A DNA stretch of 64,000 nt, taken from the NCBI GenBank assembly GCA_033286805.1, contig GCA_033286805.1_4727.1; one strand, 5' to 3'. The notes under the pieces are model-generated. The model was given only the letters and a program-made list of their open reading frames with translations, did no database searches and had not been told where the DNA came from. Numbering within the stretch: position 1 is the stretch's first letter; each line of letters begins with the position of its first letter. The translations under genes were made by a program, and so were the position numbers. This document shows positions 1,298 to 17,195 of this stretch, one piece after another. The stretch comes from a phage.

Positions 1298-2136
1298 GCT
1301 GGGTTACCTTTTAGTTTTCCACGTAACATGTCGACAACGCGTGAGGGATCAGAAATAACATTGGCGATAAGATGATCGATAGGTAGGTCGAGAATGATAT
1401 TCTTCAGCTGGAAAGCCGTATCTTTACGACGCACGCCGTAGAACACGCCATCTTTAAACACAACCTCGTACGAAATGGGGAGCTGGCTAATAACCGTGTT
1501 AGCGTAATCACCCAACCACATCGACCCCGCCATCAGATGCGCACAAACAGCATGACTAATACGCACATCTTTGTTCTTCCGGTTAACGTCTTTGGTTTTC
1601 GACATGGTAACCAGAAGCTCACCGATCTTACTCAGCATATCGTCGTATACCCCAAAGAACTTAATCAGTTGTCGGGCACCTAACGATATATATGTTTCTC
1701 GTGGTAAGACACAACACACCTGCGGTAACGTTCCAACACCATAGACACAACTGTGTGGTGATAATGGAAGCAAATCAGCAACCGCGTTCTTGATGTTGTT
1801 ATACTCAACGATATCGTTGAACGGTGAAAGACCTTTCGTAATCGGTTTATCAATCGCCACATCGAACTCCGCGAACGTCCATGCTGCTTTACGCGGTTCC
1901 CCTTTCTGGTACGGTGGAGCCAGTACCGCGACAACACGAAGTCGATGTTCATGGGTATCACGTAGCTTAAGTTGGATACCCTCACCGTCACCCTCACGCA
2001 CAAGTGAGTAGCGGCTTGCGCAGTCATCACATACCACCGTTGGTTCGTGTTGACCGTATGCTGCAAGCATCGGTTTACTAAGATCTTTATCACAGTGTTT
2101 ACAGCGATGATCCTGTTCCTGATAACTGATTTTCAC
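1294..2136 (-). CDS. hypothetical protein with N-terminal Cys4 zinc-ribbon (280 aa)
   Basis: CKHCD...CDDC pairs near N-terminus; long ORF, protein-like composition. Confidence 0.65.
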   Translation of the reverse strand: MKISYQEQDHRCKHCDKDLSKPMLAAYGQHEPTVVCDDCASRYSLVREGDGEGIQLKLRDTHEHRLRVVAVLAPPYQKGEPRKAAWTFAEFDVAIDKPITKGLSPFNDIVEYNNIKNAVADLLPLSPHSCVYGVGTLPQVCCVLPRETYISLGARQLIKFFGVYDDMLSKIGELLVTMSKTKDVNRKNKDVRISHAVCAHLMAGSMWLGDYANTVISQLPISYEVVFKDGVFYGVRRKDTAFQLKNIILDLPIDHLIANVISDPSRVVDMLRGKLKGNPA

Positions 2137-2151
2137 ACCGAGACCCCTTTG

Positions 2152-3108
2152 TTAATGCAAGACACGATCTGCTGGAATTATCGAGGCATTGCTGTCGGAC
2201 AGATTCGTCGCTTTACGATCAGGACTGAATCGACGAGCGTTCTCTTCATGGTAGTTGACGGGGTTATCCTGTTTTAACAGTTCCATTGCCTCATCAAACG
2301 TTAGTTCCCGAAATCCTCTTGGATAGAGGAACAGGGGTTCATCAACATCCAGCCCTTTAACAAACCCGTGTGACAACCAGACGCTACCATCAGCACTGTA
2401 AAGAACCGGCTCAACGTCATAATCCAAGACGTATTGATACCAGTAATTAAACAGTTGGGCGATCCATCGATTACGTAATAAATAATCGATTACAACCGCA
2501 CTACGCACGCTGTGGCACCAGCCGATCTTACCATCAACTTTCTGCAACAACGTACCCTCATTTGCTTGATGAATAACCGCATTAAATAACCACGCGAGAT
2601 CGGTTGCGAAAAGTGCGGCTTCTTGAATATCGCTAATGTAACGCACGGGTATCGTCAGATGCGTGCGGTAATGCGACATCGCCTCTTCGTAGTTGTCTCC
2701 TTCGATGCAGAGAGTCCCGTTTGGTGACAGATGTCCCTGATTCAACGACTGACCAATATAAAGATCAGCGATCGCGTTAATATATTCGACGGTGCCCAAG
2801 GTTAACTCAGACATAAAAGAATCGACATCAACAGCCATCGATGTGCTGGAAACAAACGGATTGGTTGGGCGAGTTGTATTAGAGAAAATAATCGACCAAA
2901 TCGCTTCGTGTTTTTCATCCGATGGCATAAACGAAATATGGCGTTCCGCGCTATTATCGACAACAAATACCTTTACGGTTTTCAAGCAGTTAGTACAAAC
3001 ATAGCACGTGTTCGGCAACGGCATATCCGAAAACATATCGTAACGAATAGATGCCAGCGAAATGTCATGTCCGCAATGAGGGCATGTCGTATCAATAAGC
3101 GTTTTCAT
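2152..3108 (-). CDS. hypothetical protein with N-terminal zinc-ribbon (318 aa)
   Basis: CPHCGH ... CYVCTNC motif pairs; long ORF. Confidence 0.65.
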   Translation of the reverse strand: MKTLIDTTCPHCGHDISLASIRYDMFSDMPLPNTCYVCTNCLKTVKVFVVDNSAERHISFMPSDEKHEAIWSIIFSNTTRPTNPFVSSTSMAVDVDSFMSELTLGTVEYINAIADLYIGQSLNQGHLSPNGTLCIEGDNYEEAMSHYRTHLTIPVRYISDIQEAALFATDLAWLFNAVIHQANEGTLLQKVDGKIGWCHSVRSAVVIDYLLRNRWIAQLFNYWYQYVLDYDVEPVLYSADGSVWLSHGFVKGLDVDEPLFLYPRGFRELTFDEAMELLKQDNPVNYHEENARRFSPDRKATNLSDSNASIIPADRVLH

Positions 3109-3371
3109 TATTGAATTCCTTTTGATAAGAATAACTGAATATCGGTAAACTGTTCTTCAGGAACATCGTCAGCAGCCGTTAGAACCTTAGAGCCATGTTC
3201 ATTGAGGTAAGCTTCCCGTAGACAACGATGACGTCGATTGGCTTCCTGGAACTCAGTGTCCGTCATGTAAACCAGCGTAAACTTCGAACGTTTATTCGGA
3301 TTGTATCTCTTATTACGTTTCTTTGGTTTCTTCGCCATAATAGCCTCGTGAAGGTGGATGGATACACCCAT
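3108..3371 (-). CDS. small basic protein (87 aa)
   Basis: ORF with Lys/Arg-rich segment AKKPKKRNKRYNPNKRSK; stop/start junction with 2152..3108. Confidence 0.45.
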   Translation of the reverse strand: MGVSIHLHEAIMAKKPKKRNKRYNPNKRSKFTLVYMTDTEFQEANRRHRCLREAYLNEHGSKVLTAADDVPEEQFTDIQLFLSKGIQ

Positions 3372-3386
3372 CCACCTTCCTCCATG

Positions 3387-3908
3387 TTAAAGTGCGTTCA
3401 ATTCTTCAGGTGTACGTACAGTACGCGTGTTGGGATCAACCATTGCTGGCACACCCGCTGGACATTTACGGACATCGATCCGCATCTCCGGTTCGATCGG
3501 ACGAACGCGATACGTTTTGCCATCATCGGTTAACACCGAAATGGTCAACGCTTGGTTCAATTCACTAACGAAGTTCACCAAACGTTGTTGTCCGCCCTTC
3601 GACCAGAAGTTAAGATCGGTTTCTCCATTGAAATAACTGATTCCATCAGCGGTTCCAATCGTGATTTTAACGATACCCGGATAGTCACGAAGAAGAGGTG
3701 CCTGATAACCTTCATCTTCCGTATCCAGTTTTACCCACACGCCTCCCGTAGACAAACAGTTAACTTCCAAGGCGGTTGGTGCGCTGACTTCCGCCGATGA
3801 CCAGGTATACATCGTGCCTAGTTTAGCGTGTCCGGTTTCCAGCTCGCTGTAATCCCAAGCATGTGCTGATGCCGTAACAAATAAAGCCGCAAGAAACAAC
3901 TTTTTCAT
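3387..3908 (-). CDS. secreted/periplasmic protein (173 aa) with Sec-type signal peptide
   Basis: N-terminus MKKLFLAALFVTASAHA followed by W: n-region, hydrophobic core, AxA cleavage site. Confidence 0.6.
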   Translation of the reverse strand: MKKLFLAALFVTASAHAWDYSELETGHAKLGTMYTWSSAEVSAPTALEVNCLSTGGVWVKLDTEDEGYQAPLLRDYPGIVKITIGTADGISYFNGETDLNFWSKGGQQRLVNFVSELNQALTISVLTDDGKTYRVRPIEPEMRIDVRKCPAGVPAMVDPNTRTVRTPEELNAL

Positions 3909-3963
3909 TCTTTTCGATTCCTATTAAAAGTGACCGATTTCTGTGGTCGAGATTGCTAATAAA

Positions 3964-4425
3964 TTAATTCCGGTTTTGTTTCCGTATTGCACGGTTACGT
4001 TTACGTTCTTGGTCTTTGACTGTACCAAGAAACTTCTTTAATTCTGACGGTTCGAGTGTACCCTCACGTACCACACCGTTTTGTTCGATATGGTACGACC
4101 AATAACCAACTTCAGCCGTTAAGGATAACGTTGTCGGTTGTTCGTCAGGTAACGATCGGGGTGAGAAAATAAAGAGTAATTCAAAAGGCGTTTCTCGGCT
4201 GATGGTGGGACGGATACTAACGTCAAGACCCTCCCATCGCTGAGGTTTAAATATTCCTCCAGCAGCAATGATTGTCTCCGAGCGTTGATCTACAAGCTCG
4301 GCTAATTCACGATCATCGTTGAAATAAATATCGTGAAGAATATCTGTGTCGATAAAAAACCCGCGTTCCAAATCGTGACGAACAATGGAATTCTTCATTC
4401 TGCTGCCTTTGTTGTTTGTTTTCAT
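3964..4425 (-). CDS. hypothetical protein (153 aa; start uncertain, ATG also at 4398)
   Basis: ORF; no motif recognised. Confidence 0.5.
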   Translation of the reverse strand: MKTNNKGSRMKNSIVRHDLERGFFIDTDILHDIYFNDDRELAELVDQRSETIIAAGGIFKPQRWEGLDVSIRPTISRETPFELLFIFSPRSLPDEQPTTLSLTAEVGYWSYHIEQNGVVREGTLEPSELKKFLGTVKDQERKRNRAIRKQNRN

Positions 4426-4474
4426 GTCCTATACGAACACGAAAAACCGTTAATTTTTACCATAACCACATGCG

Positions 4475-4750
4475 TTAAAATTCCACACCGCGACCCGTCA
4501 TCGACGAAGGAACCGCGCGATAATAGAAGTAGATGTAATGGTCACGATGGCTAAAATAGTTTTTGCAAGCATAGAACTCTCCAGATCCAATGAATGATTT
4601 AATACGTGTAACTTGAGGGTGTCGTGCGATTAACGCCTGTATGACGATTTCCATTTGGTGTGCGCTCAAACCAGGTCGAGCTGCAACATGATAATGAAGC
4701 TCCCTAAGAAATCGTTTCCAGGGATCAGGTTGTGTCGATGATCGAGACAT
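4475..4750 (-). CDS. hypothetical protein (91 aa)
   Basis: ATG preceded by AAGGAGATAAAG; lies directly after terminator hairpin 4789..4806. Confidence 0.5.
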   Translation of the reverse strand: MSRSSTQPDPWKRFLRELHYHVAARPGLSAHQMEIVIQALIARHPQVTRIKSFIGSGEFYACKNYFSHRDHYIYFYYRAVPSSMTGRGVEF

Positions 4751-4788
4751 CTTTATCTCCTTAACGGTTGCTGGTAACGCGGCATAAA

Positions 4789-4806
4789 CCCTCCCCGAAG
4801 GGAGGG
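4789..4806 (-). terminator. intrinsic terminator hairpin (minus-sense CCCTCCC-UUCG-GGGAGGG) with TTTATGCCG tail
   Basis: 7-bp GC stem with UUCG tetraloop 11 nt after the stop of 4817..5374. Confidence 0.6.
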
Positions 4807-4816
4807 TGATTAACGA

Positions 4817-5374
4817 TTACTCCATCCATACTTCTTCGTCGTAATGATTTTCTATCGCATTACGCCAAAAACGCACGGTGTCCAAACTAATCGGCGCATA
4901 AAAATGCTGATCAACGCCGACATTAAGTCCGTTGGCCTTCGCTAACATACAGCGATGAATATGACCGAATAGATTGAAGTAGCCTGGGTTTCTTTCGCTG
5001 GGCTTATGGCATAGCCAGTAGGATTCGTCATTGCTAATCGGCAACACCAACGGATGTTCATAAACCGCAGCAAACCCCATACCGAGCAATTTATCACGCC
5101 ATGCTTCAAAGCTTAATCCTGTTGCTTTGTATGCGTCTTCGTCCCAATTCCCCAATACCAATTGAACCTGGATATCAGAACGAATGGCTTCCACGAACTC
5201 GAACTTACCCCAATCACCTAAATGCCATAACACACTGTTCTTTGGAAGCTTGTTGATGGCTTTCAGCATATGCTGGTTCATATCGGCGACGCTTGCGAAC
5301 GGACGGCGTGAATACGTCCATGTACGCTCGCTATCAAAATGGGTATCCGACATAAAGAAGATGGACGGGGTCAT
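4817..5374 (-). CDS. metallophosphoesterase (calcineurin-like, possible Ser/Thr phosphatase type), 185 aa
   Basis: Ordered metal-binding motifs SDTHF (DxH), GDWG (GD), GNWDE (GNHD/E-like), GHIH (GHxH). Confidence 0.7.
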   Translation of the reverse strand: MTPSIFFMSDTHFDSERTWTYSRRPFASVADMNQHMLKAINKLPKNSVLWHLGDWGKFEFVEAIRSDIQVQLVLGNWDEDAYKATGLSFEAWRDKLLGMGFAAVYEHPLVLPISNDESYWLCHKPSERNPGYFNLFGHIHRCMLAKANGLNVGVDQHFYAPISLDTVRFWRNAIENHYDEEVWME

Positions 5375-5853
5375 TGATCTAATTGCTCCAGAAATGCACG
5401 ACCCGATTTACTTGCTTTTAAATGCTGTTCTGCGGAAGTAAGCAGAAGATCGGTTGGTGTATATGCAGCGCTACCTTTCCACGCTGTTTTCAGTTTACCC
5501 TTTTCGATACTGAACTGAATCAGTTGTTGGGTACCGAAGTTAAGCGTGTTCGTCGCGGCGCTAAATACACCACCCATCATGCTGTAACCAAAGACTTTCA
5601 CGTTTTCCGTGTAGAAGTCATTGTCGATCAATTTGTTCTGGAGCTCGAGTTGGTCGGACGGCAGCAATCCCCCATCGAAGACGCTTAAAATACCAGCCAG
5701 GCGATACATACTCACCTTTCCTGAAACGCCCACCACGTAGTTGCCGTACACGGTTTCTTCCAGTTTAGCAACAACGGTGCGATCGTCGGAGGTTTTCATC
5801 GAAACCTCAATACCATCACCAACTTCTGTTAACGTTAAATCAACGATACTCAT
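5371..5853 (-). CDS. hypothetical protein (160 aa)
   Basis: ORF with 4-nt overlap to 4817..5374. Confidence 0.55.
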   Translation of the reverse strand: MSIVDLTLTEVGDGIEVSMKTSDDRTVVAKLEETVYGNYVVGVSGKVSMYRLAGILSVFDGGLLPSDQLELQNKLIDNDFYTENVKVFGYSMMGGVFSAATNTLNFGTQQLIQFSIEKGKLKTAWKGSAAYTPTDLLLTSAEQHLKASKSGRAFLEQLDQ

Positions 5854-5875
5854 TCATTATTCTCCGCTTTCATGT

Positions 5876-6562
5876 TTAACACATGATTTCACCATGTTTC
5901 TTTTCAACATACGTATAAACGTCATCCAAATAAGCAATGAGTTTATCACGATCCGCACAGAGCGATTTAATCATCGCAATCTCTTTCATATAAAGCTGCT
6001 GACCTAACGCCGGATAGGTAATCCAAGCGTAGCCGTCAGGCGCAAATTTAGAAATAAGATAATCGGCGGTTTCCTGTAATGCGAACTCTTTGCTCATCTG
6101 GCCGTAACGATGTTCGATTGCACGGATACCAAAACGTTCGCTATCGAGACGACCCATATCCGCCAGACGAAGCACCTGAGAAGCAACAGAACTACGTGGA
6201 CCAGAGTGCGAGGCACGATGTTCAGCAATAAGTACGCGTATCTCCTCGATGTCTTCCGGTGTGAAAATATCCTGCTCGTTACGAAGCAGGATAACCGATG
6301 CACGAATACCACCGATAAGGTGGTGGTATGTTCTGTTTTCGTGGCAAGCGATATCATGCATAAAAGCAGCGGTTAATAGACGACGACGTTCCGTGGGTCT
6401 GATGATCCCAACCACATCAGCAAGTTCATTTGCCAGTTCAACAACAGCAAGCACATGTTCTTCTTGATGTGCAAGATCGTTCTTCCGAATATTTTCAATT
6501 ACTTCAGCGCGAGTTTCCTGAGATAAGAAATTTAAACAATCCAACGAATATAAAGATTTCAT
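5876..6562 (-). CDS. HD-domain phosphohydrolase (228 aa)
   Basis: H ... FMHDIACHE ... H ... LRLADM arrangement typical of the HD superfamily; early-promoter-like motif 49 nt upstream. Confidence 0.6.
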   Translation of the reverse strand: MKSLYSLDCLNFLSQETRAEVIENIRKNDLAHQEEHVLAVVELANELADVVGIIRPTERRRLLTAAFMHDIACHENRTYHHLIGGIRASVILLRNEQDIFTPEDIEEIRVLIAEHRASHSGPRSSVASQVLRLADMGRLDSERFGIRAIEHRYGQMSKEFALQETADYLISKFAPDGYAWITYPALGQQLYMKEIAMIKSLCADRDKLIAYLDDVYTYVEKKHGEIMC

Positions 6563-6603
6563 CGCACGTACCTCTTTGAATCTATTAATAAATTTTCTTT
6601 ACT

Positions 6604-6627
6604 CACGTAAGTAATATAGCCGTGAAA
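6604..6627 (-). promoter_or_regulatory. early-promoter-like motif (minus-sense TTTCACGGCTATATTACTTACGTG)
   Basis: One of four near-identical copies, each 49-94 nt upstream of a minus-strand start codon; core TATATTAC. Confidence 0.5.
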
Positions 6628-6706
6628 GGATTTGTGTTGGTCCGTTTCGATGCCCATCGTATTTTATGGATTGTCGAATGACGTCATTTTAAGGGACATC
6701 CCCGGC

Positions 6707-6740
6707 CTCCTCCCCAGGAAAGGTGTGGGGAGGAGTTTTT
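6707..6740 (+). terminator. GC hairpin plus T5 run (plus orientation); role unclear
   Basis: ctcctcccca / tggggaggag 10-bp stem, 9-nt loop, then ttttt; no upstream plus-strand gene. Confidence 0.35.
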
Positions 6741-6770
6741 ATCATACATTCTATTAAATCGAGCGCGATT

Positions 6771-8852
6771 ATGTTGGATAGAATCAATCGTTTAATGAAC
6801 CGAATAACGGTTAAAAATCAGAGTAACAATACCGTGCATATCGGGGGTATCGATGCCTGGCGTCTTTCAGATGACATTCAGCGAATATGGGGTACCTCCC
6901 GATTTATGAAACATATGTTTCGTAATTTCTCTTCTAGTGGACTCAGTCTCCACAATTTTTACCTTCCCGATTTCGTTTATATTCTCGAAACGATCATCGA
7001 AGCAAAGAATACCCGCAGTAATAAACGCATGCTGAAACACCTTATTGAGGTACTGCTGCAGGAAACCTGGTTGCAAAATACCACAATCGAGCAACCTGCA
7101 ATCCTCGATAAAGCACGCATGAACAAAATGCTAACGCTCTCCCTGTTCGATTATCAAGATGAGTTTATCGACATCTATAACCGTAACGTACCTAAATATC
7201 GACTGAAAGGATACGTGTGTGCGATGGGTGCGGGTGCTGGTAAAACAATCACCGCATTGGCTTTAAGCGCCGCAATGAACGTCGACGTATTTGTGGTCTG
7301 CTGTCCTAAGAACACCATGCGTTCAGCATGGCAATCCGATGTAAACAAAGCCATCGTTGACCCCGCAACAGAAACCGCATTCTGGTCAGATACAATGCCA
7401 CCATCACAGCTGCAGAAAAGCGATAAGTATTATTTTCTGCATTACGAGTCGATGGGTTTATTAAACGATGTAATGATCAAGCATAAACGCACCGCGAAGC
7501 GAGTTCTTATTGTTGTTGACGAAAGCCATAACTTCAACGACAAGAACAGCCAACGTTCCCAACGACTGGTTGATCTCGTACAGACGATGCGTCAGACCAT
7601 GAATGCTGATGTTCATGTCTTGTTTATGTCGGGTACGCCTGTTAAACAAATGGGTTCTGAGATGATCCCGTGTTTAGGTTGTATTGACCCAATGTTCCAA
7701 GGACAGGTGGTCGATAGCTTCAAAGCAATTTACGGTTTAACCAGCAGTCGCGCTAACGATATCCTCAGACATCGTCTTGGGTTCATGATGCATGTCGTAC
7801 CTAAAGAGGCTTATCGTAAAACCCGTCCGGAAGTTCAGGACGTTTACGTGAAGCTCCCTAACGGTAGCGATTATACCATCTCAAGTATCCGCGACGACAT
7901 GGCGATATTTGTACGCGATCGGGCAAAGTATTACAAGGATAACTGGGGGCATTACAGAAAGATTTTTGATGACGCCTTGGACTACTATCGTAAGACTATT
8001 CGTACCGATGGTGAACGTAAAGAGCTATCTCGATACGAATCGATTGTTGCTCGTTTCCAGAAAGGTTACGACCCCGTCAGAGACAAAGAAGATGCGATGT
8101 TCTGCAACGCGTTTGAAAAACGTTCCATCATGCCGGTTCTTCCTTCCGATTTAAGGGTTGCTTTCAAAGACGCCAAGAGCGTCATCAAGTACGTTGGGTT
8201 GAAAATTCAGGGTGAAGCGTTGGCACGTGTTCTAGGTGCAGCCCGCATTCGGTGTCATGTCGACATGGTGGAGTACATCGACTTCGAAGGGTACATCAAT
8301 AACGCCGAAGCCAAAGTGTTGATCTTCACGTCGTACGTTCAGGTGGTTGAACGCGTCGACAACATGCTTCGTGATGCGGGTTTCTTACCTGAACCCATTT
8401 ACGGGAAGACCAACAAGAACATCAACCAAATACTTGCTCGTCTACGCGATGATCCTGACAGCGGTCCCGCTATCGCAACATTTGATAGCTTAGCTGAAGG
8501 GGTTCCGATGCTGATGTGTAATGTCGGCCTTTTCCTGAACAATCCATGGCGTTCATCCGATGAAATCCAAGCCATCAGCCGTCTCGATCGTGTAGGGCAA
8601 ACGCAGCCCGTTCGGATTTATCGTTTCATGTTGGATACAGGAAGCGAGGGTAACGTTTCTACACGTAGCCACGAAATCATGGAGTTAAGTCGACAGCTTG
8701 TTGAAGAAATCACGGGTGTCAAATATGTAGTGAACAAGCAAGACGATGTTAACTTGCAAGAAACGTTGGCGATGGAAGGATACGATCAATACGTTACCGT
8801 AAACACCACGGAATACGATATTAAACCGCGACCTGCATTCTTGGAATGGTGA
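6771..8852 (+). CDS. SNF2/Rad54-like superfamily-2 helicase/ATPase
   Basis: Walker A GAGAGKT, DExH box VVDESHN, motif III MSGTP, C-terminal helicase domain with Q..R..R.GQ-like motif VI (AISRLDRVGQ); start moved to ATG 6771 because the GTG at 6723 lies inside a hairpin. Confidence 0.7.
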   Translation: MLDRINRLMNRITVKNQSNNTVHIGGIDAWRLSDDIQRIWGTSRFMKHMFRNFSSSGLSLHNFYLPDFVYILETIIEAKNTRSNKRMLKHLIEVLLQETWLQNTTIEQPAILDKARMNKMLTLSLFDYQDEFIDIYNRNVPKYRLKGYVCAMGAGAGKTITALALSAAMNVDVFVVCCPKNTMRSAWQSDVNKAIVDPATETAFWSDTMPPSQLQKSDKYYFLHYESMGLLNDVMIKHKRTAKRVLIVVDESHNFNDKNSQRSQRLVDLVQTMRQTMNADVHVLFMSGTPVKQMGSEMIPCLGCIDPMFQGQVVDSFKAIYGLTSSRANDILRHRLGFMMHVVPKEAYRKTRPEVQDVYVKLPNGSDYTISSIRDDMAIFVRDRAKYYKDNWGHYRKIFDDALDYYRKTIRTDGERKELSRYESIVARFQKGYDPVRDKEDAMFCNAFEKRSIMPVLPSDLRVAFKDAKSVIKYVGLKIQGEALARVLGAARIRCHVDMVEYIDFEGYINNAEAKVLIFTSYVQVVERVDNMLRDAGFLPEPIYGKTNKNINQILARLRDDPDSGPAIATFDSLAEGVPMLMCNVGLFLNNPWRSSDEIQAISRLDRVGQTQPVRIYRFMLDTGSEGNVSTRSHEIMELSRQLVEEITGVKYVVNKQDDVNLQETLAMEGYDQYVTVNTTEYDIKPRPAFLEW

Positions 8853-8858
8853 TTAAGA

Positions 8859-8884
8859 AGCTCTGCCTGACATCAGGCAGAGCT
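8859..8884 (+). terminator. hairpin terminator after the SNF2 helicase gene
   Basis: Perfect 11-bp stem agctctgcctg / caggcagagct with 4-nt loop; weak T-rich tail. Confidence 0.45.
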
Positions 8885-8951
8885 TCATGCTGTATTTGTT
8901 GCAAGATCGTATGACGTATATGCGTTGTACTTATTTAATAAGGCAGAATAA

Positions 8952-10403
8952 ATGAAACTTAAACAAAGCTGGAAAGACGAACTTCTCGCGTTAGTAAATA
9001 GCAAAAACAGTTTACAGCTGACATTAGCCGACGTAAAATTTGAGTTAACTGAACCGGTAAGCGAAGTGCCCGGAACGGTTGTTGTTACGATCAAACCGAA
9101 CGATGATAGCCGTTACTTTAACGAGCAGTCTCTGACCTACATTCGTCGAGACATCGCTAAAAACTTCACCGGGATCCCGTTACGGGTTATCGTTAAAAAT
9201 GATACCGCCGTAAGGGATATCATCAACACGATCGCTGAACGTTACGGATTGGTATTTGACACAACCGTCGACTTCCTCGAATCCGAACTGAATAAACAAA
9301 TTACGTTCGAAGACACCGGTATTAAAGACATTACGGTTCCGGTTGCAAACACGTCTTATGTTTGGGCTGGTAATCTTCAGTTCAATATCGCTAACGATAC
9401 GTTGAGCTTGATTACGATCATCAAGCAAACCAATCTTACGAATCTGGTTTATCTGGATGGTGTTGAATCTAACACATCGGGTTCGTTACTATTAGCAACG
9501 ACCTCGGTTATCGGCGAAAACGGAAATGCCGAAACAACTGAAGGTGTCCTTGACGCCGCGTACTTCCAGAATATCCTGAACGTCATGGTTCGTTATGGTG
9601 ATATTACCAGCGAACAAATGCAACAAGCAATGCAGACAATTAACGGAAGCGAAGACGCTCGTAGAGTAGAGGTGCGGTCATACGGTGACGCCGAATTATT
9701 GGTAACCACCAAGAAAGATTGGGTTATCGGTAGCCTTAAGGGTGCTATGGTTGTTGGTCACGCTTCACCTAAACCAATCCAATACGTTCTTAAAACAAAA
9801 GGCGGCACCATTATATTGTCATTAGATGGTTGGACAAATGTCAATATCGATTGGGGTGATGGGAATAAGACGACGCAGGACTCCGGCGATAATGAATATC
9901 AGCACAATTACGCGGACACTACAGAACGTACGATCGTCGCTACGGGTACCCCTACCAACGTTGAAGATACAGACGTACAGCAAAGCTTCACCGGTGGTAA
10001 CATCACTGAAATCGTTGACTGGAACAACGGATTACCTAAGGCCCCATCATTACTTGCGGCGAACAGTTTAATTAAGGTTCCCGATTATATCCCGGCATAC
10101 TGGACATCGTTAGAAGGTATGTTTACGCGATGCAGCGCTATTAACGACGTGAACATCACCAAATGGAACACCCGCAACATTACTTCAATGAAGGACCTCT
10201 TCTACGGTTGCGCTACGTTCAACCAACCGATCGGTTCGTGGGATGTTTCGTCTGTTAAGAATGCAGACAATATGTTGTCTGGGTGCTTCGCGTTCAATCA
10301 GGATCTGAGTGGTTGGACATTCCCGGCAGGCACTTCACACATCAACTACGACGCCATGACCGCCGCATGGCAGGCTGGTTATAAACCACACTTCACCGAG
10401 TAA
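8952..10403 (+). CDS. PKD-domain plus DUF285 (BspA/Mycoplasma-type surface repeat) protein, 483 aa
   Basis: IDWGDGNKT...YQHNY (PKD WxFGDG...HxY signature); C-terminal repeats FYGCATFNQPIGSWDVSSV / GCFAFNQDLSGW matching the DUF285 repeat. Confidence 0.65.
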   Translation: MKLKQSWKDELLALVNSKNSLQLTLADVKFELTEPVSEVPGTVVVTIKPNDDSRYFNEQSLTYIRRDIAKNFTGIPLRVIVKNDTAVRDIINTIAERYGLVFDTTVDFLESELNKQITFEDTGIKDITVPVANTSYVWAGNLQFNIANDTLSLITIIKQTNLTNLVYLDGVESNTSGSLLLATTSVIGENGNAETTEGVLDAAYFQNILNVMVRYGDITSEQMQQAMQTINGSEDARRVEVRSYGDAELLVTTKKDWVIGSLKGAMVVGHASPKPIQYVLKTKGGTIILSLDGWTNVNIDWGDGNKTTQDSGDNEYQHNYADTTERTIVATGTPTNVEDTDVQQSFTGGNITEIVDWNNGLPKAPSLLAANSLIKVPDYIPAYWTSLEGMFTRCSAINDVNITKWNTRNITSMKDLFYGCATFNQPIGSWDVSSVKNADNMLSGCFAFNQDLSGWTFPAGTSHINYDAMTAAWQAGYKPHFTE

Positions 10404-10459
10404 AAAAAAAAAAATAGATAGCATATCTTCCTCCCTACCCATAACGGGCGGGGAGGAAG
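10402..10459. terminator. bidirectional terminator between convergent genes (hairpin plus A13/T13 run)
   Basis: cttcctccc / gggaggaag stem at 10427..10459; 13-A homopolymer 10402..10414 gives a T13 tract for minus-strand transcripts. Confidence 0.55.
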
Positions 10460-10476
10460 GTTTATGTCAATTTAAT

Positions 10477-10815
10477 TTAGAACCAGAGTTCTTTCATGAG
10501 GTAAGCTTCCATATCGTAGATAAGCCACTCGTCAGGGATTTCTAAAGGATCGTCTTCGGTTAAGGTCAGCATGTGCAGGGCGAACGCACGCTTAATATCG
10601 TTCAGCAGTTTTTCGTCGTCGTAACCTTCTGGTAGTTTACGGTCTACCAGCTGGGTTTGTTTATAGACATCGCGGAATGCTTCAGGGCTGTGTTTGTCCA
10701 TCGGAAATTGTTCAGCAGCCTGAACCATAGAAAGCGTCCAGCTTACAACATTGTAACGCTCACCGTTAATTTCACTGAACTGATCATCGATTAAACAGAT
10801 TTGTTGTACATTCAT
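10477..10815 (-). CDS. hypothetical acidic protein (112 aa)
   Basis: ORF convergent with 8952..10403; terminator between them. Confidence 0.5.
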   Translation of the reverse strand: MNVQQICLIDDQFSEINGERYNVVSWTLSMVQAAEQFPMDKHSPEAFRDVYKQTQLVDRKLPEGYDDEKLLNDIKRAFALHMLTLTEDDPLEIPDEWLIYDMEAYLMKELWF

Positions 10816-11705
10816 TCATTTTCTCCATTCTTATCTTGGTCGCAATCACACTCTTCGACGTCTTTCTTACTTAAACGTAAGACGCCGAGTGCGGCATGCT
10901 TGAGTTCTTGCAACGCGCTTTTCAGCTGACCTTCTTCATCGAAATCAAAATACTTCTCGTTGTAGCTTAACGCTGGAATCATATTTACGAGAGGTTCGAT
11001 GGCGGGCATCAGCATTTCAATGACGACCTTAGGATCAACAAAGCGTTCGAACCCTTCAGGAAGTTTGCTCGCTACAACCTTATCGTTTTTGATGTAGAAT
11101 TTGTTCTTGAACAAATCGTCAAGAATAGCATTCTCTTCATCCGTACGTTTTGCGTGAGGACGATCGATCATCTGCACAAACACATCGCTCAACGCTTCAG
11201 GCAACGTCGGATTTTCACGAAGATAAGTTCCGGCTGGAATTTCAATATCGATCTTCGTCCACTCAACAACCTGGTGGTCTCGCGTATAGATGACGTCAAC
11301 TTCCCATGCCAGGCCATCAGCGCTTTCTACGGTGTAACGTGTTTTCGCCTGGCCTTCAGGAGCCATGCGTTCGATCGCGTCAAACATCTCGACTGGGATT
11401 TCGACTTCGCTTTCCGTCGCATCACCTGGACCACGATACACCTTCGTGGTCATGATGTATTTCGGCTCTTCGTTATCGATCTGGATCGCACGTGCGCGCA
11501 CCTGACCTTTCACGCCACCAACGGCCGTGTTATCAAACAACCACTGATGTTGCACCATATGTTCGATTTTTGATGCGACTTGACGAAGACGTTCAACACC
11601 GTCTTCAGCCAGTTTACCAAAGAAGACCAGCTCACGTTCCTGCTGTGTCTCACCACTTAACATCATTAAATTGGCGATTTGTTTCACGCCTCTTACTTGT
11701 GACAT
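10812..11705 (-). CDS. hypothetical protein (297 aa)
   Basis: Long ORF; 4-nt overlap with downstream gene. Confidence 0.6.
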   Translation of the reverse strand: MSQVRGVKQIANLMMLSGETQQERELVFFGKLAEDGVERLRQVASKIEHMVQHQWLFDNTAVGGVKGQVRARAIQIDNEEPKYIMTTKVYRGPGDATESEVEIPVEMFDAIERMAPEGQAKTRYTVESADGLAWEVDVIYTRDHQVVEWTKIDIEIPAGTYLRENPTLPEALSDVFVQMIDRPHAKRTDEENAILDDLFKNKFYIKNDKVVASKLPEGFERFVDPKVVIEMLMPAIEPLVNMIPALSYNEKYFDFDEEGQLKSALQELKHAALGVLRLSKKDVEECDCDQDKNGENE

Positions 11706-11773
11706 ACATGCTCCGGTTATAAGGGCCTACATCGAGGCCCCTCATTGATTTTTGATTCCACCAAACGCTATCG

Positions 11774-14404
11774 TTACAATTCAAAATCTTCATCGATAAC
11801 ACGCTGGGTAAGCACTTTGTCGCTGAAGAACTCCACCTTGCGCTGATGGTATTTACGGTGCGCTTCGATAGAAGTACATACCAGATACCAGAACGTTGGC
11901 GTCATTCCTTCAAACTTCCCTTTCAGCTGACGCAGTCGTCCCAACACCTGAATGTTGCCGGTTCGTGACCCCATCGCTAACGTCATGAACGTCATCACCA
12001 AGTCAGGAAGGTCGATACCGGTACCTGCCGATTTCACGGTTGTAACGCTAATATCGTTATCCAGCAAGACCATGAAATCTTCTTCAGCAGTATAAGGACC
12101 GATCTCTAGCTCAGGAATACGTTCACTGAGATAATGCGACAACGACTTACACATATCAACGGTTGCACAATACACCAGCATCTTCATACCTTCCTGATAC
12201 TGGTTCATAAAACCTTTGATAATAACGGTATAGATGAAGTTAAAGTACGCGAGTTTGAGTTGCTTGTTCTTCATGATAGACTGTTCAAATATCGTGTGCG
12301 AATAAGCTCCACCAAACCCTTTGTATCTGACTTTATCTGTACTGCGTAGTCGATATGTTACCGCATTTACCGCAATGTATTTCTTGTATTCGCCTTTCGC
12401 ATAACGGGCTTCTTTCGGATACATCAAATACAGCATCTGTTCGATAAACGGATCATCGGATACCGCTGTTGCCGACAGATAAATGATTTCCGGAATATTG
12501 GCGTAACACTTGACCTTAAACAAGAAATGCAATGCTTCGTGACACTCGTCATGAATCAGCAAACCTATGCCGGTCTTTTCCCAAAACTCAGCGGGATGGA
12601 AGGCATATGGCGCAACGCAGTTATTCTTCTCGTAGTCCGCAATATAACGTTGGAACATGTTCAAGGAGAACAATGCGATTTTGAAGTCGAGTTCACCCTG
12701 TTCAACCAAGGTTTGAAACTCCAGCATGCTGTAACGAGGAATGTCGGGATGCGGTGGATCCTCCTTAGCGTTCCCGCGTATCTCGATAACATCCCCTGGT
12801 TCCATCCCGAAGAAGTTCAGCAGCGAGCTTCGCCAACCTGGCATATACCGTGGAGAAAGTATAATGCCTGTGCGCACACCCCGTCTAAACACGATTTCCT
12901 GCGACATCGCGGTGTTGTGTGTGACGATAAAGTCTTTCACCACAAACAACGCTGAAGGATCATCGATCGTAATGCAACGTGCATCCGCAACACGGGAAGG
13001 TTTGATTGACAGTACACGCAGCATACTTTCGAAGTATTGTCCGTCGACAGGACAACGTTCCAGCTTCTTCGGAAGTGTAACGATTTCATGTGGACGTTTA
13101 TACCGTATCGTAACCATGTACGCCAATCGTCCCTTATGTCTTTCCCCCTTGTAGGTGTAATACGGTTGTTTAATACGTAGACGAGCATATCCACCGATCG
13201 AACGAACCAAGTAGATAACGTCATCTGAAAGCTGTTTGCTCGAAGTACAGAAAACAATAGATCCGCCTTTATCTACCGTTCCGTCGGTATCGATAAGACC
13301 TGCAAGTATTTCGCAACGCTGTCTATGCGACGCCATCATGTACTGTTTCGGAACAAACTTCTCCCAGGCTCGTTTACCCATCAACCCCAACTGATCAAGC
13401 GCGGATGCTGTCTCCGACCGCCCACCGTAATTGATTAACGTTGCGGCAGGCGTCTTCGTTACCGCATAGTCGTATTTGTCACGGTACTGTATTTCACAGT
13501 CATCAGGAAGACGACTTAACACCTTATTCAAGATGAAATCGTCAGGAGTTGTAATGATTGGAGATGTCGTTAAATGACCGTCCCCTAACAGAACACCAAG
13601 CACGTACGGATCAAGCGGTAAATCTGCATCAGGAGTATCCTCAGACTCACAATACGGAATGTAAAGTCGTTTATTGGACAGCTCCAGGATACGAATCATC
13701 TCAAGTGTATTGATAACCCGCATGGGATAAGGATTGTTTTTGTCCCATCCCCAGTTAGGTCTCATGCACGCCCAGAGATGCTCGCCGCAGGCTTCAACAC
13801 GACGACCGTCAGCAAAGACAATCTCATAGAGCTGTTTTGCTTTATGGTCGAAGATATTGGTTACCTTCGTTGGTCGGCCATTAGCAGCCGTGATGGTATC
13901 ACCTAGCTTCAAATCGCCTAATTGACGCCATCCGCCAGGGACTTTTACGAGCGTGGTAAGCGGATTCGCTTTACCAGACCCCGTTTGAGCGGTGTTTAGG
14001 CTCATTCTGAAGGGGGTATCCTTACCCCCGTTCATGTACTCCAGCCATTCTTGTTGATCTTCACGCCACGGAAACTTCCATTTCTTTACGAACTCCACTT
14101 CCTTACCTGGTACCGGATCGTGATAAACGATTTCCAACCACTCTTTTCGGATTCCTCGAGAGAAGATAAAATCCAAAAACGATTTCAACTGTTCGCGGAG
14201 TAAGTATACCTCGCTATAATCGCTTCTCGCTGCGGCGTAGGTGTTAATGGTATCGGTGACCATTCTCCGTGTACGAGGGTCGCGTCGTTTCCGTAGATGC
14301 AAACAACGGTCTCGAAGGTAATGGCCAATCAAATGGGCAAATCGAAGTCCGTATCCGCTCAGCCTCATGCCATGCGAGAAGACGTCGATACGAGCTAACT
14401 TCAT
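11774..14404 (-). CDS. SF2 DEAH-type helicase interrupted by an intein (876-aa precursor; mature helicase about 524 aa)
   Basis: Extein halves TGSGK / T reconstitute a P-loop GSGKT after removing residues 146-497; downstream DECH box and SAT motif; ATGA overlap with upstream RNAP gene. Confidence 0.75.
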   Translation of the reverse strand: MKLARIDVFSHGMRLSGYGLRFAHLIGHYLRDRCLHLRKRRDPRTRRMVTDTINTYAAARSDYSEVYLLREQLKSFLDFIFSRGIRKEWLEIVYHDPVPGKEVEFVKKWKFPWREDQQEWLEYMNGGKDTPFRMSLNTAQTGSGKANPLTTLVKVPGGWRQLGDLKLGDTITAANGRPTKVTNIFDHKAKQLYEIVFADGRRVEACGEHLWACMRPNWGWDKNNPYPMRVINTLEMIRILELSNKRLYIPYCESEDTPDADLPLDPYVLGVLLGDGHLTTSPIITTPDDFILNKVLSRLPDDCEIQYRDKYDYAVTKTPAATLINYGGRSETASALDQLGLMGKRAWEKFVPKQYMMASHRQRCEILAGLIDTDGTVDKGGSIVFCTSSKQLSDDVIYLVRSIGGYARLRIKQPYYTYKGERHKGRLAYMVTIRYKRPHEIVTLPKKLERCPVDGQYFESMLRVLSIKPSRVADARCITIDDPSALFVVKDFIVTHNTAMSQEIVFRRGVRTGIILSPRYMPGWRSSLLNFFGMEPGDVIEIRGNAKEDPPHPDIPRYSMLEFQTLVEQGELDFKIALFSLNMFQRYIADYEKNNCVAPYAFHPAEFWEKTGIGLLIHDECHEALHFLFKVKCYANIPEIIYLSATAVSDDPFIEQMLYLMYPKEARYAKGEYKKYIAVNAVTYRLRSTDKVRYKGFGGAYSHTIFEQSIMKNKQLKLAYFNFIYTVIIKGFMNQYQEGMKMLVYCATVDMCKSLSHYLSERIPELEIGPYTAEEDFMVLLDNDISVTTVKSAGTGIDLPDLVMTFMTLAMGSRTGNIQVLGRLRQLKGKFEGMTPTFWYLVCTSIEAHRKYHQRKVEFFSDKVLTQRVIDEDFEL
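12914..13969 (-). mobile_element. intein (352 aa) with LAGLIDADG homing endonuclease; class-3-like (Ala1, WCT triad)
   Basis: Hint block A-like N-terminus TLVKVPGG...GD...NGRP; two LAGLIDADG motifs (LGVLLGDGHL, ILAGLIDTDG); C-terminal FIVTHN followed by Thr+1; residue 1 is Ala; Trp in GEHLW, Cys in ARCITIDD and Thr before HN fit the class-3 WCT pattern. Confidence 0.65.
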
Positions 14405-16407
14405 AACGTGATTACATCCTCCGGTTTAGGTTCTTTACGCGGTAAAAGCATGTAGTCGATCGGATGATCCGGCTTCATGGTTGGGATATAACTGTTCGGG
14501 TTTTGGAACGCATCCAGTTGCTCTTGGTGAGCGAACTTCATACTCAAGGAGCGCATGTTCATGTTCTTCTTGAAGGTACTGAAGTATCGTGTTGTTCCCT
14601 GTTTCGGCATGCGATAATCTTTCGTGTGTGGCGAACGAATCATGCTGGCGTAGAGAATAACGTCGAGATGCGAAAGGTTCATTCGCAGACGCTGGGCACA
14701 CAGGCGATGCCAATAATACAGCACGTTTGCAACTTCTTCCGGTGTTGCTTCGTCTTCCGAGAGGAATCCGGCACTGAAAGAACCTTTCCCGAATTTGAAC
14801 TCACGTTCGATTTCTTTTGCGTATTCCATCATGTTTTTGTGGATTAACGGCATCTGGAATAACGTACGTGAATTGTCCCAATGTTTCAAGTCGAAAATCA
14901 CAATCCCGTCAGACGTCACTTCCCAGCTATGGCGTTTAAGATAACGGATAAACGCTTTACTCGGGACGACGGGACGTCCACAGAAATCGAAATTGACTTT
15001 GAGCTTACGATAGCTTTCATCTTTCCTGTCGTAAATCTCCATATCACAAAGCGTCATGTTAAACAGACGTTGCGGTATCAGCGAACTGATTTCTTCCGCT
15101 TCGGCTACATCGTACAACATGTTCGCAAGACCTAACTTCATCTTAATCAGCACGTGTTTACCTTTCAGCTCACGTGCGAGTTTGATGTCGTTCATGTTCT
15201 GGCTGTAGCGAAGGATATGTTGATATTCCGGCGGGATTGGTGCTGTGGATACCGTTGACGAACCATCGTGGTGTTTGGTGGAAAGAATGTTCTGCGTTAC
15301 CTGTTGCGAACAGGTACGCGCTGCGCCATCGCCAACATTATCGGTTAGTGCGAAGTTATGACTTAATTCACCATAACACGTTGTACATACCCCAGCAGGA
15401 TCGGGATGATGACAATAGTTAACGGAGCGCATGCGTACCGTCGTGCCGATCAATTCTTTCATGTGTGGTTGTATAGCTACCAACGAACCGTCATCACGAA
15501 TAATGAATCGACCATGGAAGCCACGCAGGTCGGTCTCATCGCGGATTGGCATCGGGATGGTCTCTTTACTACCACAATCACCAGGATGAAGTCGTTGTAC
15601 AACCGCTGTCGCTATCTGAAGTTCACGACCGAAATATTCAGACTTTTTAATCTGCTCTTTGTTGAACAGCAACGATTTCGCCGCAGAACGACTTTCTTTC
15701 AAGCTGTCGGGAAGAGAGATCAAACCAGCTGCGTATGACCGCATTACTGGATCACGGAATATCTCGGAGTTAATATCAGTCAAGAATCCACGCATCCCAA
15801 TACACTGTAGCACCTGCCCAATCGAAACGTGTTCGGTTCTTACCGCACGTGCAATAGGGTTTGCATGTAACGTTTTATCGGTGCTCAGTACCTTCGTCAG
15901 TTTCTTGTATGCGCTTTCGATACCTTCGCGGGTGGGTTCCGCTTCAGCGATGATTTTCTTAACTTCAGGGTGTACAGTAATCTGATAAAAATCATCCGCA
16001 CAAATAGTTGTTACGTATTCCTCCAACGCATACGTAAAGAAGTTATACACATTGTTAAACATATCGAACAATGCTTTCCAGAGAACCTCGCGATTCTCTT
16101 GTGGGTAAGCATACATACATTGACGATACGCTGCGCTTTGCAACGCAACCGACGAACCAGCAGTAAACTTGCGTTTATCGACCAGGTTCTCTTTTGTCAA
16201 CGGTGTCTCAGGATACATGCGATGCACAGACCAATGCATGTAACTAAAGAAAATGCGTCGCGCACGTAATTCATGAACGCCATCGTCCATCTCGATATAT
16301 ACACGGTCATTAGGCTGTGCCCATTCGAACACCTCATCAACCGGCCAGTGCATAAGCTCGCGTGCCCTCACACGACGTTTCGTGGTGGTCGTCTGTGTTG
16401 TATTCAT
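14401..16407 (-). CDS. multisubunit RNA polymerase beta' subunit, C-terminal fragment (668 aa)
   Basis: AGVCTTCYG matches the beta' GVCAHCYG zinc-binding segment; SQQVTQNILSTKHHDGSS resembles the trigger-loop GTQLTMRTFHIGGA. Confidence 0.65.
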   Translation of the reverse strand: MNTTQTTTTKRRVRARELMHWPVDEVFEWAQPNDRVYIEMDDGVHELRARRIFFSYMHWSVHRMYPETPLTKENLVDKRKFTAGSSVALQSAAYRQCMYAYPQENREVLWKALFDMFNNVYNFFTYALEEYVTTICADDFYQITVHPEVKKIIAEAEPTREGIESAYKKLTKVLSTDKTLHANPIARAVRTEHVSIGQVLQCIGMRGFLTDINSEIFRDPVMRSYAAGLISLPDSLKESRSAAKSLLFNKEQIKKSEYFGRELQIATAVVQRLHPGDCGSKETIPMPIRDETDLRGFHGRFIIRDDGSLVAIQPHMKELIGTTVRMRSVNYCHHPDPAGVCTTCYGELSHNFALTDNVGDGAARTCSQQVTQNILSTKHHDGSSTVSTAPIPPEYQHILRYSQNMNDIKLARELKGKHVLIKMKLGLANMLYDVAEAEEISSLIPQRLFNMTLCDMEIYDRKDESYRKLKVNFDFCGRPVVPSKAFIRYLKRHSWEVTSDGIVIFDLKHWDNSRTLFQMPLIHKNMMEYAKEIEREFKFGKGSFSAGFLSEDEATPEEVANVLYYWHRLCAQRLRMNLSHLDVILYASMIRSPHTKDYRMPKQGTTRYFSTFKKNMNMRSLSMKFAHQEQLDAFQNPNSYIPTMKPDHPIDYMLLPRKEPKPEDVITL

Positions 16408-16505
16408 TATTGCTTTCCGATTTAAATGGTTTTATCATACGGTTTACCAAATCCGTTGGACTTTACTATCGTTGTGATAGCATCGGGAATCCCTTCCCTT
16501 AGGTT

Positions 16506-16530: not shown

Positions 16531-16552
16531 GCTGGCCTTTATGTCGGCAGCA

Positions 16553-17182: not shown

Positions 17183-17195
17183 TTATTCGTGTTTA

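Follow-up and report, generated by a model that had tools for sequence, protein, structure and literature searches.

A probable early accessory gene block encoding an HD-domain protein, a metallophosphoesterase and a putative exported protein in a Goslar-like phage

The gene block and its relation to phage Goslar

The window analysed here is a stretch of phage DNA of 64,000 nucleotides (GenBank assembly GCA_033286805.1, contig GCA_033286805.1_4727.1), and the subject of this study is a block of minus-strand genes at positions 3387-6562, together with the promoter motif that heads it. An early-type promoter motif, a gene for an HD-domain phosphohydrolase, a gene for a binuclear metallophosphoesterase (MPE) and a gene for a putative exported protein are all found where an initial annotation, made from the sequence alone, had placed them. 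Positions 3000-7000 of the window align end to end, at 96.6% nucleotide identity, with Escherichia phage vB_EcoM_Goslar (MK327938 / NC_048170), a nucleus-forming chimallivirus that infects E. coli. The block corresponds to Goslar_00154 to Goslar_00159 (in RefSeq, with the same numbering, HOV27_gp154-gp159); its gene order and promoter sequence are identical to those of Goslar, the amino acid identities are 97.5-98.9%, and there are point differences only. The genes are therefore called here by the names of their Goslar orthologues. In GenBank, Goslar gp159 is labelled “putative HD superfamily hydrolase”, gp157 is labelled “putative phosphoesterase or phosphohydrolase”, and the other four are hypothetical proteins.

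The gene nearest to the promoter encodes the HD-domain phosphohydrolase (gp159; 5876-6562, 228 amino acids, 97.8% amino acid identity to Goslar). It is followed by gp158 (5371-5853, 160 amino acids), the MPE (gp157; 4817-5374, 185 amino acids, 98.9% identity to Goslar), gp156 (4475-4750, 91 amino acids), gp155 (3964-4425, with a longest open reading frame (ORF) of 153 amino acids) and gp154, the putative exported protein (3387-3908, 173 amino acids). No known domain was found in gp158, gp156 or gp155. The initial annotation had listed the HD, MPE and exported-protein genes correctly, and had left unmentioned the three ORFs at 5371-5853, 4475-4750 and 3964-4425 that lie among them. For gp155, the Goslar annotation places the start 9 codons inward of the longest ORF, giving a protein of 144 amino acids. 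Beyond position 3387 the same minus-strand run goes on through gp153 (3108-3371, 87 amino acids) and gp152 (2152-3108, 318 amino acids) as far as the first position of the window; its Goslar counterpart extends to gp147.

Comparison with Goslar by the Nei-Gojobori method gave ratios of nonsynonymous to synonymous substitution (dN/dS) of 0.10 for the HD gene, 0.11 for gp158, 0.15 for gp156, 0.10 for gp155, 0.03 for gp154, 0.08 for gp153 and 0.11 for gp152. As dN/dS lies between 0.02 and 0.15, i.e., in the range of purifying selection, all eight minus-strand ORFs at 2152-6562 are real genes.

A more divergent version of the block is present in L003, a 181.6-kb contig (Logan SRR31513740) which appears to be an undescribed relative of Goslar, with proteins 38-51% identical to those of Goslar. 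The order of genes in L003 is: a divergent helicase gene, an early promoter, an HD gene (238 amino acids), a gp158-like gene (161 amino acids, 38% identity), an MPE gene (183 amino acids, approximately 51% identity), three unrelated small ORFs, and then a gene for an exported protein (P0097). gp156 is not conserved in L003, and gp155 has weak similarity to L003 7402-7923. Further downstream in L003 are gp152-like zinc-ribbon proteins, a dCTP deaminase/dUTPase, a thymidylate synthase, an Rv2179c-like exonuclease and an AcrVA2-like gene; the AcrVA2-like, dCTP deaminase/dUTPase and thymidylate synthase genes lie in its early operon, at 16099-16531 and 11435-14414. The arrangement of HD, MPE and exported protein is conserved inside the Goslar lineage, and the pairing of HD with MPE is specific to that lineage, because the phages that bear an HD homologue and those that bear an MPE homologue are largely different sets.

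The N-terminus of gp152 has a zinc-ribbon-like CxxC...CxxC motif (CPHCGH...CxxC). In L003 there are two tandem gp152 paralogues (9588-10604 and 10620-11438) with the same N-terminus, and Goslar gp151 may be a second copy.

The early promoter motif and transcription of the block

The promoter motif, TTCACGGCTATATTACTTACGTG, lies on the minus strand at 6604-6626, 41 nucleotides upstream of the HD start codon, and an AAGAGG Shine-Dalgarno sequence lies between the two. It is of the type read by the virion RNA polymerase. When the 23-nucleotide pattern was searched with up to 3 mismatches, 4 copies were found in the window, all on the minus strand, compared with 0 in 100 shuffled sequences. The other three copies (25659-25681, 30938-30960 and 36759-36781) are, by comparison with Goslar, upstream of gp175, gp182 and the nuclear-shell gene chmA; in Goslar itself the four copies precede gp159 (the HD gene), gp175, gp182 and chmA. 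The similarity shared by the four copies extends well beyond the 8-nucleotide core, TATATTAC. The core alone was rejected as an enriched element, as 4 occurrences were found where 2.3 were expected, which is not significant.

Predicted early promoters have been tabulated for phiKZ-like phages: TATATTAC for phiKZ and TTTRARR-BTATATTACDWHDGTG for 201phi2-1, and also for N1M2/OBP (PMC7058600). The motif of the window has in common with these the TATATTAC core, an upstream TTTCA and a downstream GTG, and it stands in front of early-class genes, chmA among them. The Goslar-type motif differs in having a fixed CGG/GGG spacer (TTCACGGCTATATTAC), unlike the phiKZ-like consensus; the published consensus sequences are themselves predictions. 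In four other genomes a related motif lies ahead of the HD orthologue. In L003 the sequence is TCACGGCTATATTACCTAAGTG; in Erwinia phage RisingSun and Aeromonas phage ACP1 the HD orthologue, and in Vibrio phage pTD1 the DHFR-HD-ThyA unit, is preceded by a hairpin and a related motif. A scan for sigma-70 promoters found 2 sites, compared with 13 in shuffled sequences, i.e., fewer than by chance, which is consistent with transcription that is independent of the host. A published figure of the chmA start site begins 91 nucleotides upstream of the ATG, and the motif falls inside that span. The initial annotation had seen an early-promoter-like motif heading this minus-strand run, and this is borne out by the recurrence of the 23-mer, the match to published consensus sequences and the copy at chmA. 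These observations support identification of the motif as a chimallivirus early-type promoter, which would be read by the injected virion RNA polymerase from a predicted start site.

Between the block and the divergent helicase gene, there is a perfect 10-bp GC-rich hairpin on the plus strand at 6707-6740 (CTCCTCCCCA...TGGGGAGGAG, then TTTTT), 29 nucleotides before the helicase start at 6769. It is annotated in Goslar as a terminator. As there is no upstream plus-strand gene to terminate, its role may be to halt antisense transcription, or it may belong to a leader.

Evidence on the timing of transcription comes from RNA-seq of Goslar, rather than of the phage in the window (Supplementary Table 2, bioRxiv 10.1101/2023.09.20.558163). 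In Goslar, 175 of the 249 genes are expressed by 5 min, and knockdown of ChmA blocks formation of the nucleus and leaves early transcription intact (Armbruster et al., bioRxiv 10.1101/2023.09.20.558163). Under ChmA knockdown, transcripts of gp147-gp159 changed by +0.2 to +1.1 log2, whereas that of the divergent helicase gp160 changed by -5.1 to -5.8 log2 (gp160 and gp161 were both down by 5-6 log2). The genes which follow the four motif copies behaved alike: gp159 +0.9 to +1.1, chmA +0.7 to +1.1, gp182 +1.1 to +1.3 and gp175 +0.8 to +1.0 log2. Because their levels were kept when nucleus formation was blocked, the gp147-gp159 transcripts belong to the early class. Thus, the early expression proposed for the cluster holds for its Goslar orthologues; as approximately 70% of Goslar genes are early, this timing is not distinctive. 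A separate observation concerns gp181, just downstream of gp182, which was down by approximately 1 log2 under ChmA knockdown while gp182 was up, suggesting termination after gp182.

Several features fit transcription of the block as one polycistronic RNA. The raw read density in Goslar is similar from gp159 to gp152 (640-1370 reads per kb), the spacing between genes is -4 to 66 nucleotides, and a terminator scan of the minus strand from 2000 to 9000 called none. Just past the MPE stop codon, on the minus strand at 4784-4807, there is a GC-rich hairpin (ACCCTCCC-TTCG-GGGAGGGT, then TTTAT), which the scan did not call because its T-run is too short. The 66-nucleotide spacer that holds this hairpin folds in RNAfold at -19.6 kcal/mol. 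Read density in Goslar is alike on both sides of it, with no visible drop downstream. The hairpin could serve as a weak terminator or affect the stability of the RNA.

Predicted properties of the encoded proteins

The HD protein matches the Pfam family HD (PF01966) with an E-value of 4.2e-8 (33.9 bits, cut-off 22), as do all six family members tested (best 5.3e-11), and it also matches phrog_3921, a family of unknown function (E 4.6e-30). In an alignment of six family sequences (27-37% identity), the metal-binding set H36, H69-D70 and D135 is invariant, as are H32, H80-H81 and H115, and a C-terminal GYxWxxYP motif is conserved. With the family threshold exceeded and the H...HD...D ligands intact, its earlier assignment as an HD-domain phosphohydrolase is upheld. 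Homologues at approximately 30-34% identity (tblastn) were found in 94 phage records, nearly all from jumbo or chimallivirus-like phages, whose genomes are 210-295 kb long and whose hosts are Erwinia, Aeromonas, Vibrio, Klebsiella and Serratia. As the gene occurs in so many phage records and is absent from the chimallivirus core-genome paper, where it is unmentioned, it can be regarded as a widespread accessory gene. These relatives were drawn from phage records; a word-indexed homologue search with the HD sequence returned near-identical proteins only.

Direct phmmer searches of the PDB with the HD, MPE and gp154 sequences returned nothing for any of the three. With a profile, the best PDB matches of the HD family are E. 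coli YedJ (3GW7, E 6.8e-7) and the Thermotogales protein 2PQ7 (E 3.5e-6), both uncharacterised. These two, like the phage protein, are stand-alone HD proteins of approximately 220-240 amino acids, and the match spans the N-D-x-A-H ... H ... HD ... H-R/S ... AD-R/G segments. The identity is approximately 20-25% across 110 residues only, and the phage family, unlike YedJ and 2PQ7, has an additional conserved HH pair and the C-terminal G-Y-x-W-x-x-Y-P motif. The literature places YedJ in one group with the nucleotide pyrophosphohydrolase YpgQ and the nucleoside 5'-monophosphatase PenF, and still calls it uncharacterised. Weaker profile matches to PDE9, Ppx/GppA and HD-GYP (E 0.009-0.1) cover the generic H...HD segment only. 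The HD gene is flanked in Vibrio phage pTD1 by the genes for dihydrofolate reductase (DHFR) and thymidylate synthase; in Vibrio phage Aphrodite1, thymidylate synthase follows it directly. Because of the YedJ-group relatives, these thymidylate synthase and DHFR neighbours, and the content of the L003 operon, a role in the nucleotide pool is favoured, with modest confidence.

In many chimalliviruses, a gene for a protein of 150-170 amino acids follows HD. The idea that HD and a following gene of approximately 160 amino acids form a conserved two-gene module was considered and rejected, as those proteins are not homologous to gp158. Examples of 150-165 amino acids are found at L005 4678-5163, L008 4658-5152, L006 4654-5118 and L013 3630-4088; several of these proteins begin with a hydrophobic segment, and RisingSun gp239 is a homologue of Miami gp243 (E 3e-10). 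The distribution of gp158 itself is limited to Goslar-like phages and to L003, where the identity is 38%. The sequence ATGA at 5371-5374 holds both the stop codon of gp158 and the start codon of the MPE, which overlap.

The MPE matches Pfam Metallophos_2 (E 3.7e-8, 34 bits, cut-off 27) and the PHROG family phrog_547, “phosphoesterase” (E 1.1e-30). Its motifs are D10-x-H12, G53-D54, G75-N76-W77-D78, H123 and G137-H138-x-H140, and all of the metal ligands are present. In an alignment of 72 sequences, D10, H12, G53, D54, H123, G137, H138 and H140 are invariant and G75 and N76 nearly so; R24, P125 and N151-V-G-x-D155-x-H157 are specific to the family. Thus, the 185-residue calcineurin-type enzyme described initially is as reported in its metal ligands, with one qualification: motif III is GNWD here and GNYE in the family, so that the usual non-ligand histidine of GNH[DE] is replaced by tryptophan (tyrosine in the family). 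Other active MPE subfamilies also vary at this histidine, e.g. GNCD in MJ0936/YfcE. An AlphaFold2 model (predicted local distance difference test (pLDDT) score 97.3) has the beta-sandwich fold of MPEs, and is nearest to 1XM7, then to LpxH, the PolD DP1 exonuclease, MJ0936 and a P. putida nuclease MPE, with Mre11/SbcD also among the neighbours. The 1XM7 protein, aq_1665 of Aquifex aeolicus (of the COG4186 small MPEs), is the closest solved relative in both sequence and structure. It has 25% identity to the phage MPE and its function is unknown; aq_1665 keeps GNHD, in contrast to the GNYE/GNWD of the phage family.

The search for MPE homologues found 93; among phage records, 133 of widely differing kinds have one, including those of Erwinia Yoloswag-like phages (47% identity) and of Enterococcus, Streptomyces and Bacillus phages. 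On large phage contigs the neighbours of the homologues include gyrase and dCMP deaminase; Thg1, CCA-adding enzyme and NAD-ligase; or ThyX, a second MPE, NUDIX and MazG. In Yoloswag the MPE gene lies between primase/exonuclease genes and the SSB gene. Some neighbourhoods hold more than one phosphoesterase-type gene. In Enterococcus phage EFDG1 (L016 3998-6172), the MPE homologue bears the annotation MutT/nudix phosphohydrolase; after it come another phosphoesterase gene, a small ORF of unknown function and a Ser/Thr phosphatase gene, which makes three phosphoesterase-type genes in approximately 2.2 kb; in L020, two adjacent MPE genes are followed by NUDIX, a small YacG-like gene and MazG. The only early phage MPE with a functional study behind it, A10ZJ24 Gp48 of a mycobacteriophage, has phosphodiesterase activity and is reported to damage host DNA and blunt defence (PMC12287305, EMBO Rep 2025). 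A10ZJ24 Gp48 / Bxb1 gp47 has 255 amino acids and a canonical GNHD, and shares only the superfamily with the MPE of the window, for which it is a plausible functional analogue. Membership of the same family as the cluster A mycobacteriophage MPE was rejected, since an hmmsearch with the 72-sequence profile against Bxb1 gp47 returned nothing even at E <= 10.

The N-terminus of gp154 is MKKLFLAALFVTASAHA|WD, of which residues 1-17 (codons 3858-3908) have the form of a Sec signal peptide cleaved by signal peptidase I: MKK / LFLAALFVTA / SAHA|W, with A-H-A at positions -3 to -1. The n-region is positively charged, the 10-residue hydrophobic core has a mean Kyte-Doolittle hydropathy of 2.59, and there is no lipobox and no cysteine at +1. 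The mature form would have 156 amino acids, a mass of approximately 17.2 kDa, a pI of 4.6 and two conserved cysteines (C51 and C149). Comparison of gp154 with Pfam, PHROG, NCBIfam, PADLOC and the PDB identified no relative, a word-indexed homologue search returned near-identical proteins only, and within the phage collection gp154 was found in Goslar only. When 1.8 billion representatives were searched exhaustively with HMMER, only two relatives emerged, one at 92% identity and one at 43%, the latter being P0097 of L003. In P0097 a signal peptide (MKHVVK / SVIAAALVF / SSSAFA|WE) is retained, as are the A-x-A|W site and the cysteine pair (C51 and C149), which argues for real export of gp154 and for a periplasmic disulphide. 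Thus the clear Sec signal peptide claimed for this protein is borne out by rule and by conservation. Matches of gp154 to P0098 and P0099 (1077 and 2304 amino acids) are to ankyrin-type repeat proteins over a 37-residue stretch, and were judged spurious.

According to a crude screen on hydrophobicity and charge, gp154 has the only signal-peptide-like N-terminus among the 66 putative genes of the window. The initial annotation had called a secreted early protein unusual for a phage of this kind; gp154 does stand alone in the window, while the wider claim about phages in general goes beyond these data, and a literature search for signal peptides in early proteins of chimalliviruses found nothing relevant. 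T5 Llp and T4 Imm/Sp are small early phage proteins that act outside the cytoplasm and block further infection. gp154 would be like them in being both early and envelope-directed. It has no sequence similarity to them, it is not a lipoprotein as it has no lipobox cysteine, and it has no membrane anchor past the signal peptide.

Elsewhere in the window, the segment at 33050-33455 is without approximately 1.47 kb of Goslar sequence (168195-169660), which comprises the HNH endonuclease gp186 and an annotated group I intron and adjoins the gene for the nvRNAP beta subunit; approximately 400 bp of different sequence is present instead. A search of Rfam at the gathering threshold found no RNA family anywhere in the window. 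The offset to Goslar shifts by 1064 bases between 6627 and 21881 (136182 at 6604 and 135118 at 21882), so the window holds approximately 1 kb extra, relative to Goslar, somewhere in 6627-21881.

Virion association and the possible roles of the block

The reading that we favour, with slightly better than even confidence, is that a long polycistronic early accessory operon has its promoter-proximal part in this interval, and that its products go to different places. The injected virion RNA polymerase would transcribe gp159 to at least gp147, probably as a single transcript, from the chimallivirus early promoter, and the genes carried would be lineage-specific accessory genes. The HD protein would stay inside the cell as a metal-dependent phosphohydrolase, most probably acting on nucleotides (of the 5'-nucleotidase or NTP pyrophosphohydrolase type) in management of the nucleotide pool. 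gp158 and the translationally coupled MPE would become associated with the virion, the MPE being a binuclear-metal phosphodiesterase or monoesterase that most probably acts on nucleic-acid ends or nucleotides. gp154 would be exported via Sec, cut after AHA, probably disulphide-bonded in the periplasm, and act at the envelope, its likeliest role being to exclude or modulate further infection.

The virion association was found in public data. In a preprint on the Goslar virion (2026, 10.64898/2026.04.21.720040), virions purified with polyethylene glycol (PEG) and caesium chloride (CsCl) were analysed by label-free quantitative mass spectrometry, and copy numbers were estimated (Table S4). gp158 was recovered at approximately 926 copies per virion (19 peptides, 62% coverage) and the MPE at approximately 75 (14 peptides, 63% coverage). 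For other products of the operon, the copies per virion were approximately 59 for the gp147 exoribonuclease, 11 for gp154 (2 peptides), 1.8 for gp152, 1.1 for the HD protein, 0.9 for gp155 and 0.3 for gp151 and gp149; among the rows listed there is no entry for gp156, gp153, gp150 or gp148. By way of comparison, there are approximately 21 copies of a virion RNA polymerase subunit, 55-70 of the inner-body paralogues, 75 of a tail fibre protein, 20 of thymidylate synthase, 11 of helicase, and 0.1 of nvRNAP and of DNA polymerase. Given that the genes of the operon have a similar mRNA density, the enrichment of gp158 and the MPE in the virion is 70-900-fold over their operon mates. gp158 was ranked second most abundant among ten function-unknown unmodelled proteins (10.64898/2026.04.21.720040). 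Neither “gp157” nor “metallophosphoesterase” occurs in the main text of the preprint, and thus its authors leave the enzyme undiscussed. A literature search for a packaged phosphoesterase in jumbo phages found nothing relevant. gp158 and the MPE were recovered from purified Goslar virions; true packaging and injection would be a further step.

Several points weigh against the favoured reading. The virion association comes from mass spectrometry alone, and gp158 and the MPE are outside the authors' validation, which covered only gp60, gp61, gp208 and gp209 (10.64898/2026.04.21.720040). Carry-over exists in the dataset, as judged from the approximately 20 copies of thymidylate synthase, and host proteins are present too. 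gp158 belongs to the early class, as do gp168 and gp214 (high-copy, virion-associated Goslar proteins of unknown function, at +0.8 to +1.3 log2 under ChmA knockdown). In contrast, expression of the packaged proteins that have been validated, gp58, gp60/61 and gp78, depends on the nucleus (down by approximately 4-6 log2). The early timing of gp158 could reflect either an unusual packaging route or co-purification. With regard to the other proteins, the substrate assignments rest on gene neighbourhood and distant relatives, both enzyme subfamilies being uncharacterised, and the adjacency of HD and ThyA is from one phage lineage only. For gp154, rule and conservation rather than a trained predictor are the grounds for the signal peptide, and a gp154 model from a 4-sequence alignment was unusable (pLDDT 48), with no assignable fold.

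The points on virion association are the basis of the alternative that survives best, and which is nevertheless considered unlikely. Here the virion signal would be an artefact: gp158 and the MPE would be abundant or sticky early proteins, or self-assembling particles, carried along when virions are purified, and the cluster would simply be a set of unrelated intracellular accessory genes. The carry-over of thymidylate synthase and host proteins, the early class of gp158, gp168 and gp214, and the narrow scope of the authors' validation are all in keeping with co-purification. It accounts poorly for the 70-900-fold excess over operon mates of similar mRNA density, for the PEG and CsCl purification of the sample, and for the high peptide coverage, which is at least 62% for both proteins.

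If the signal is real, the MPE could be a packaged and injected nuclease or end-processing enzyme. Within the first minutes it would work on nucleic acid of the host or the phage, in degradation of host DNA or in counter-defence, as reported for A10ZJ24 Gp48, with gp158 as its packaging partner or as a capsid-internal protein. This is a rather more doubtful proposal. In its favour, the approximately 75 copies of the MPE per CsCl-purified virion exceed the approximately 21 of the virion RNA polymerase subunit; the MPE start overlaps the stop of gp158, itself present at approximately 926 copies, and the pair is conserved in L003. Also consistent with it are the structural neighbours of the model (the PolD DP1 exonuclease, the P. 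putida nuclease MPE and Mre11/SbcD), the description of Goslar as degrading host DNA, and the early phosphodiesterase and host-DNA damage of A10ZJ24 Gp48 (PMC12287305).

A joint and still less probable version is that the MPE and gp158 are truly packaged in the capsid and injected together with the DNA and, separately, that gp154 enters the lumen of the early-infection vesicle. If that vesicle is derived from the inner membrane, its lumen may be topologically periplasmic, and gp154 could enter it besides the periplasm. The MPE would then work before any phage gene expression, inside or beside the vesicle, possibly in destroying host nucleic acid or immune nucleotides, or in processing of genome ends.

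The initial annotation had suggested that the two enzymes clear host signalling nucleotides. According to this improbable explanation, the HD protein and/or the MPE would destroy such nucleotides early in infection: (p)ppGpp, the cyclic oligonucleotides of CBASS, type III CRISPR and Pycsar, or Thoeris signals. Both are phosphohydrolases with intact active sites and early expression, the HD profile weakly matches cyclic-nucleotide phosphodiesterases, Ppx/GppA and HD-GYP (E 0.009-0.1), and the AcrVA2-like gene of the L003 operon indicates that anti-defence cargo occurs there. The phosphodiesterase and HD-GYP matches, however, are confined to the generic H...HD segment. No significant similarity to characterised degraders of nucleotide signals was found; the best relatives, YedJ/2PQ7 and aq_1665, belong to subfamilies without assigned function and give no link to (p)ppGpp or cyclic oligonucleotides. 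PADLOC gave no matches, and NCBIfam gave sub-threshold matches only (HDIG and PdeM). Among phage enzymes that degrade immune nucleotides, Acb1 is of the 2H fold and Apyc1 of the metallo-beta-lactamase fold; neither homology nor a shared fold with such enzymes was found, as the only domains are HD and Metallophos. Furthermore, the HD and MPE homologues sit among genes of DNA, RNA and nucleotide metabolism, not beside anti-defence genes.

Protein dephosphorylation, also raised initially, finds nothing to tie either enzyme to phosphoproteins, and that the MPE is a Ser/Thr/Tyr phosphatase like that of bacteriophage lambda, resetting host phosphorylation, is very improbable, given that the general-acid histidine of GNH[DE] is tryptophan here and tyrosine in the family, that the closest structures are of other kinds, and that the E. 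coli host has little Ser/Thr phosphosignalling.

To return to the favoured reading of an early accessory operon with products bound for different places, most of the block is ordinary: its genes are orthologues of Goslar genes that are already annotated, its two hydrolases belong to very large superfamilies, and it belongs to the early class, as do the majority of Goslar genes. The unexpected point is that public proteomics finds the MPE and its overlooked neighbour gp158 in purified virions. For the nucleus-forming phages, in which the first minutes of infection are poorly understood, there are thus two leads, both of them candidates only. The first is the virion-found MPE together with gp158. 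The second is gp154, the only putative exported protein in 64 kb, with a signal peptide and a cysteine pair conserved at 43% identity. Either could reveal a new injected cargo or an envelope-directed function.

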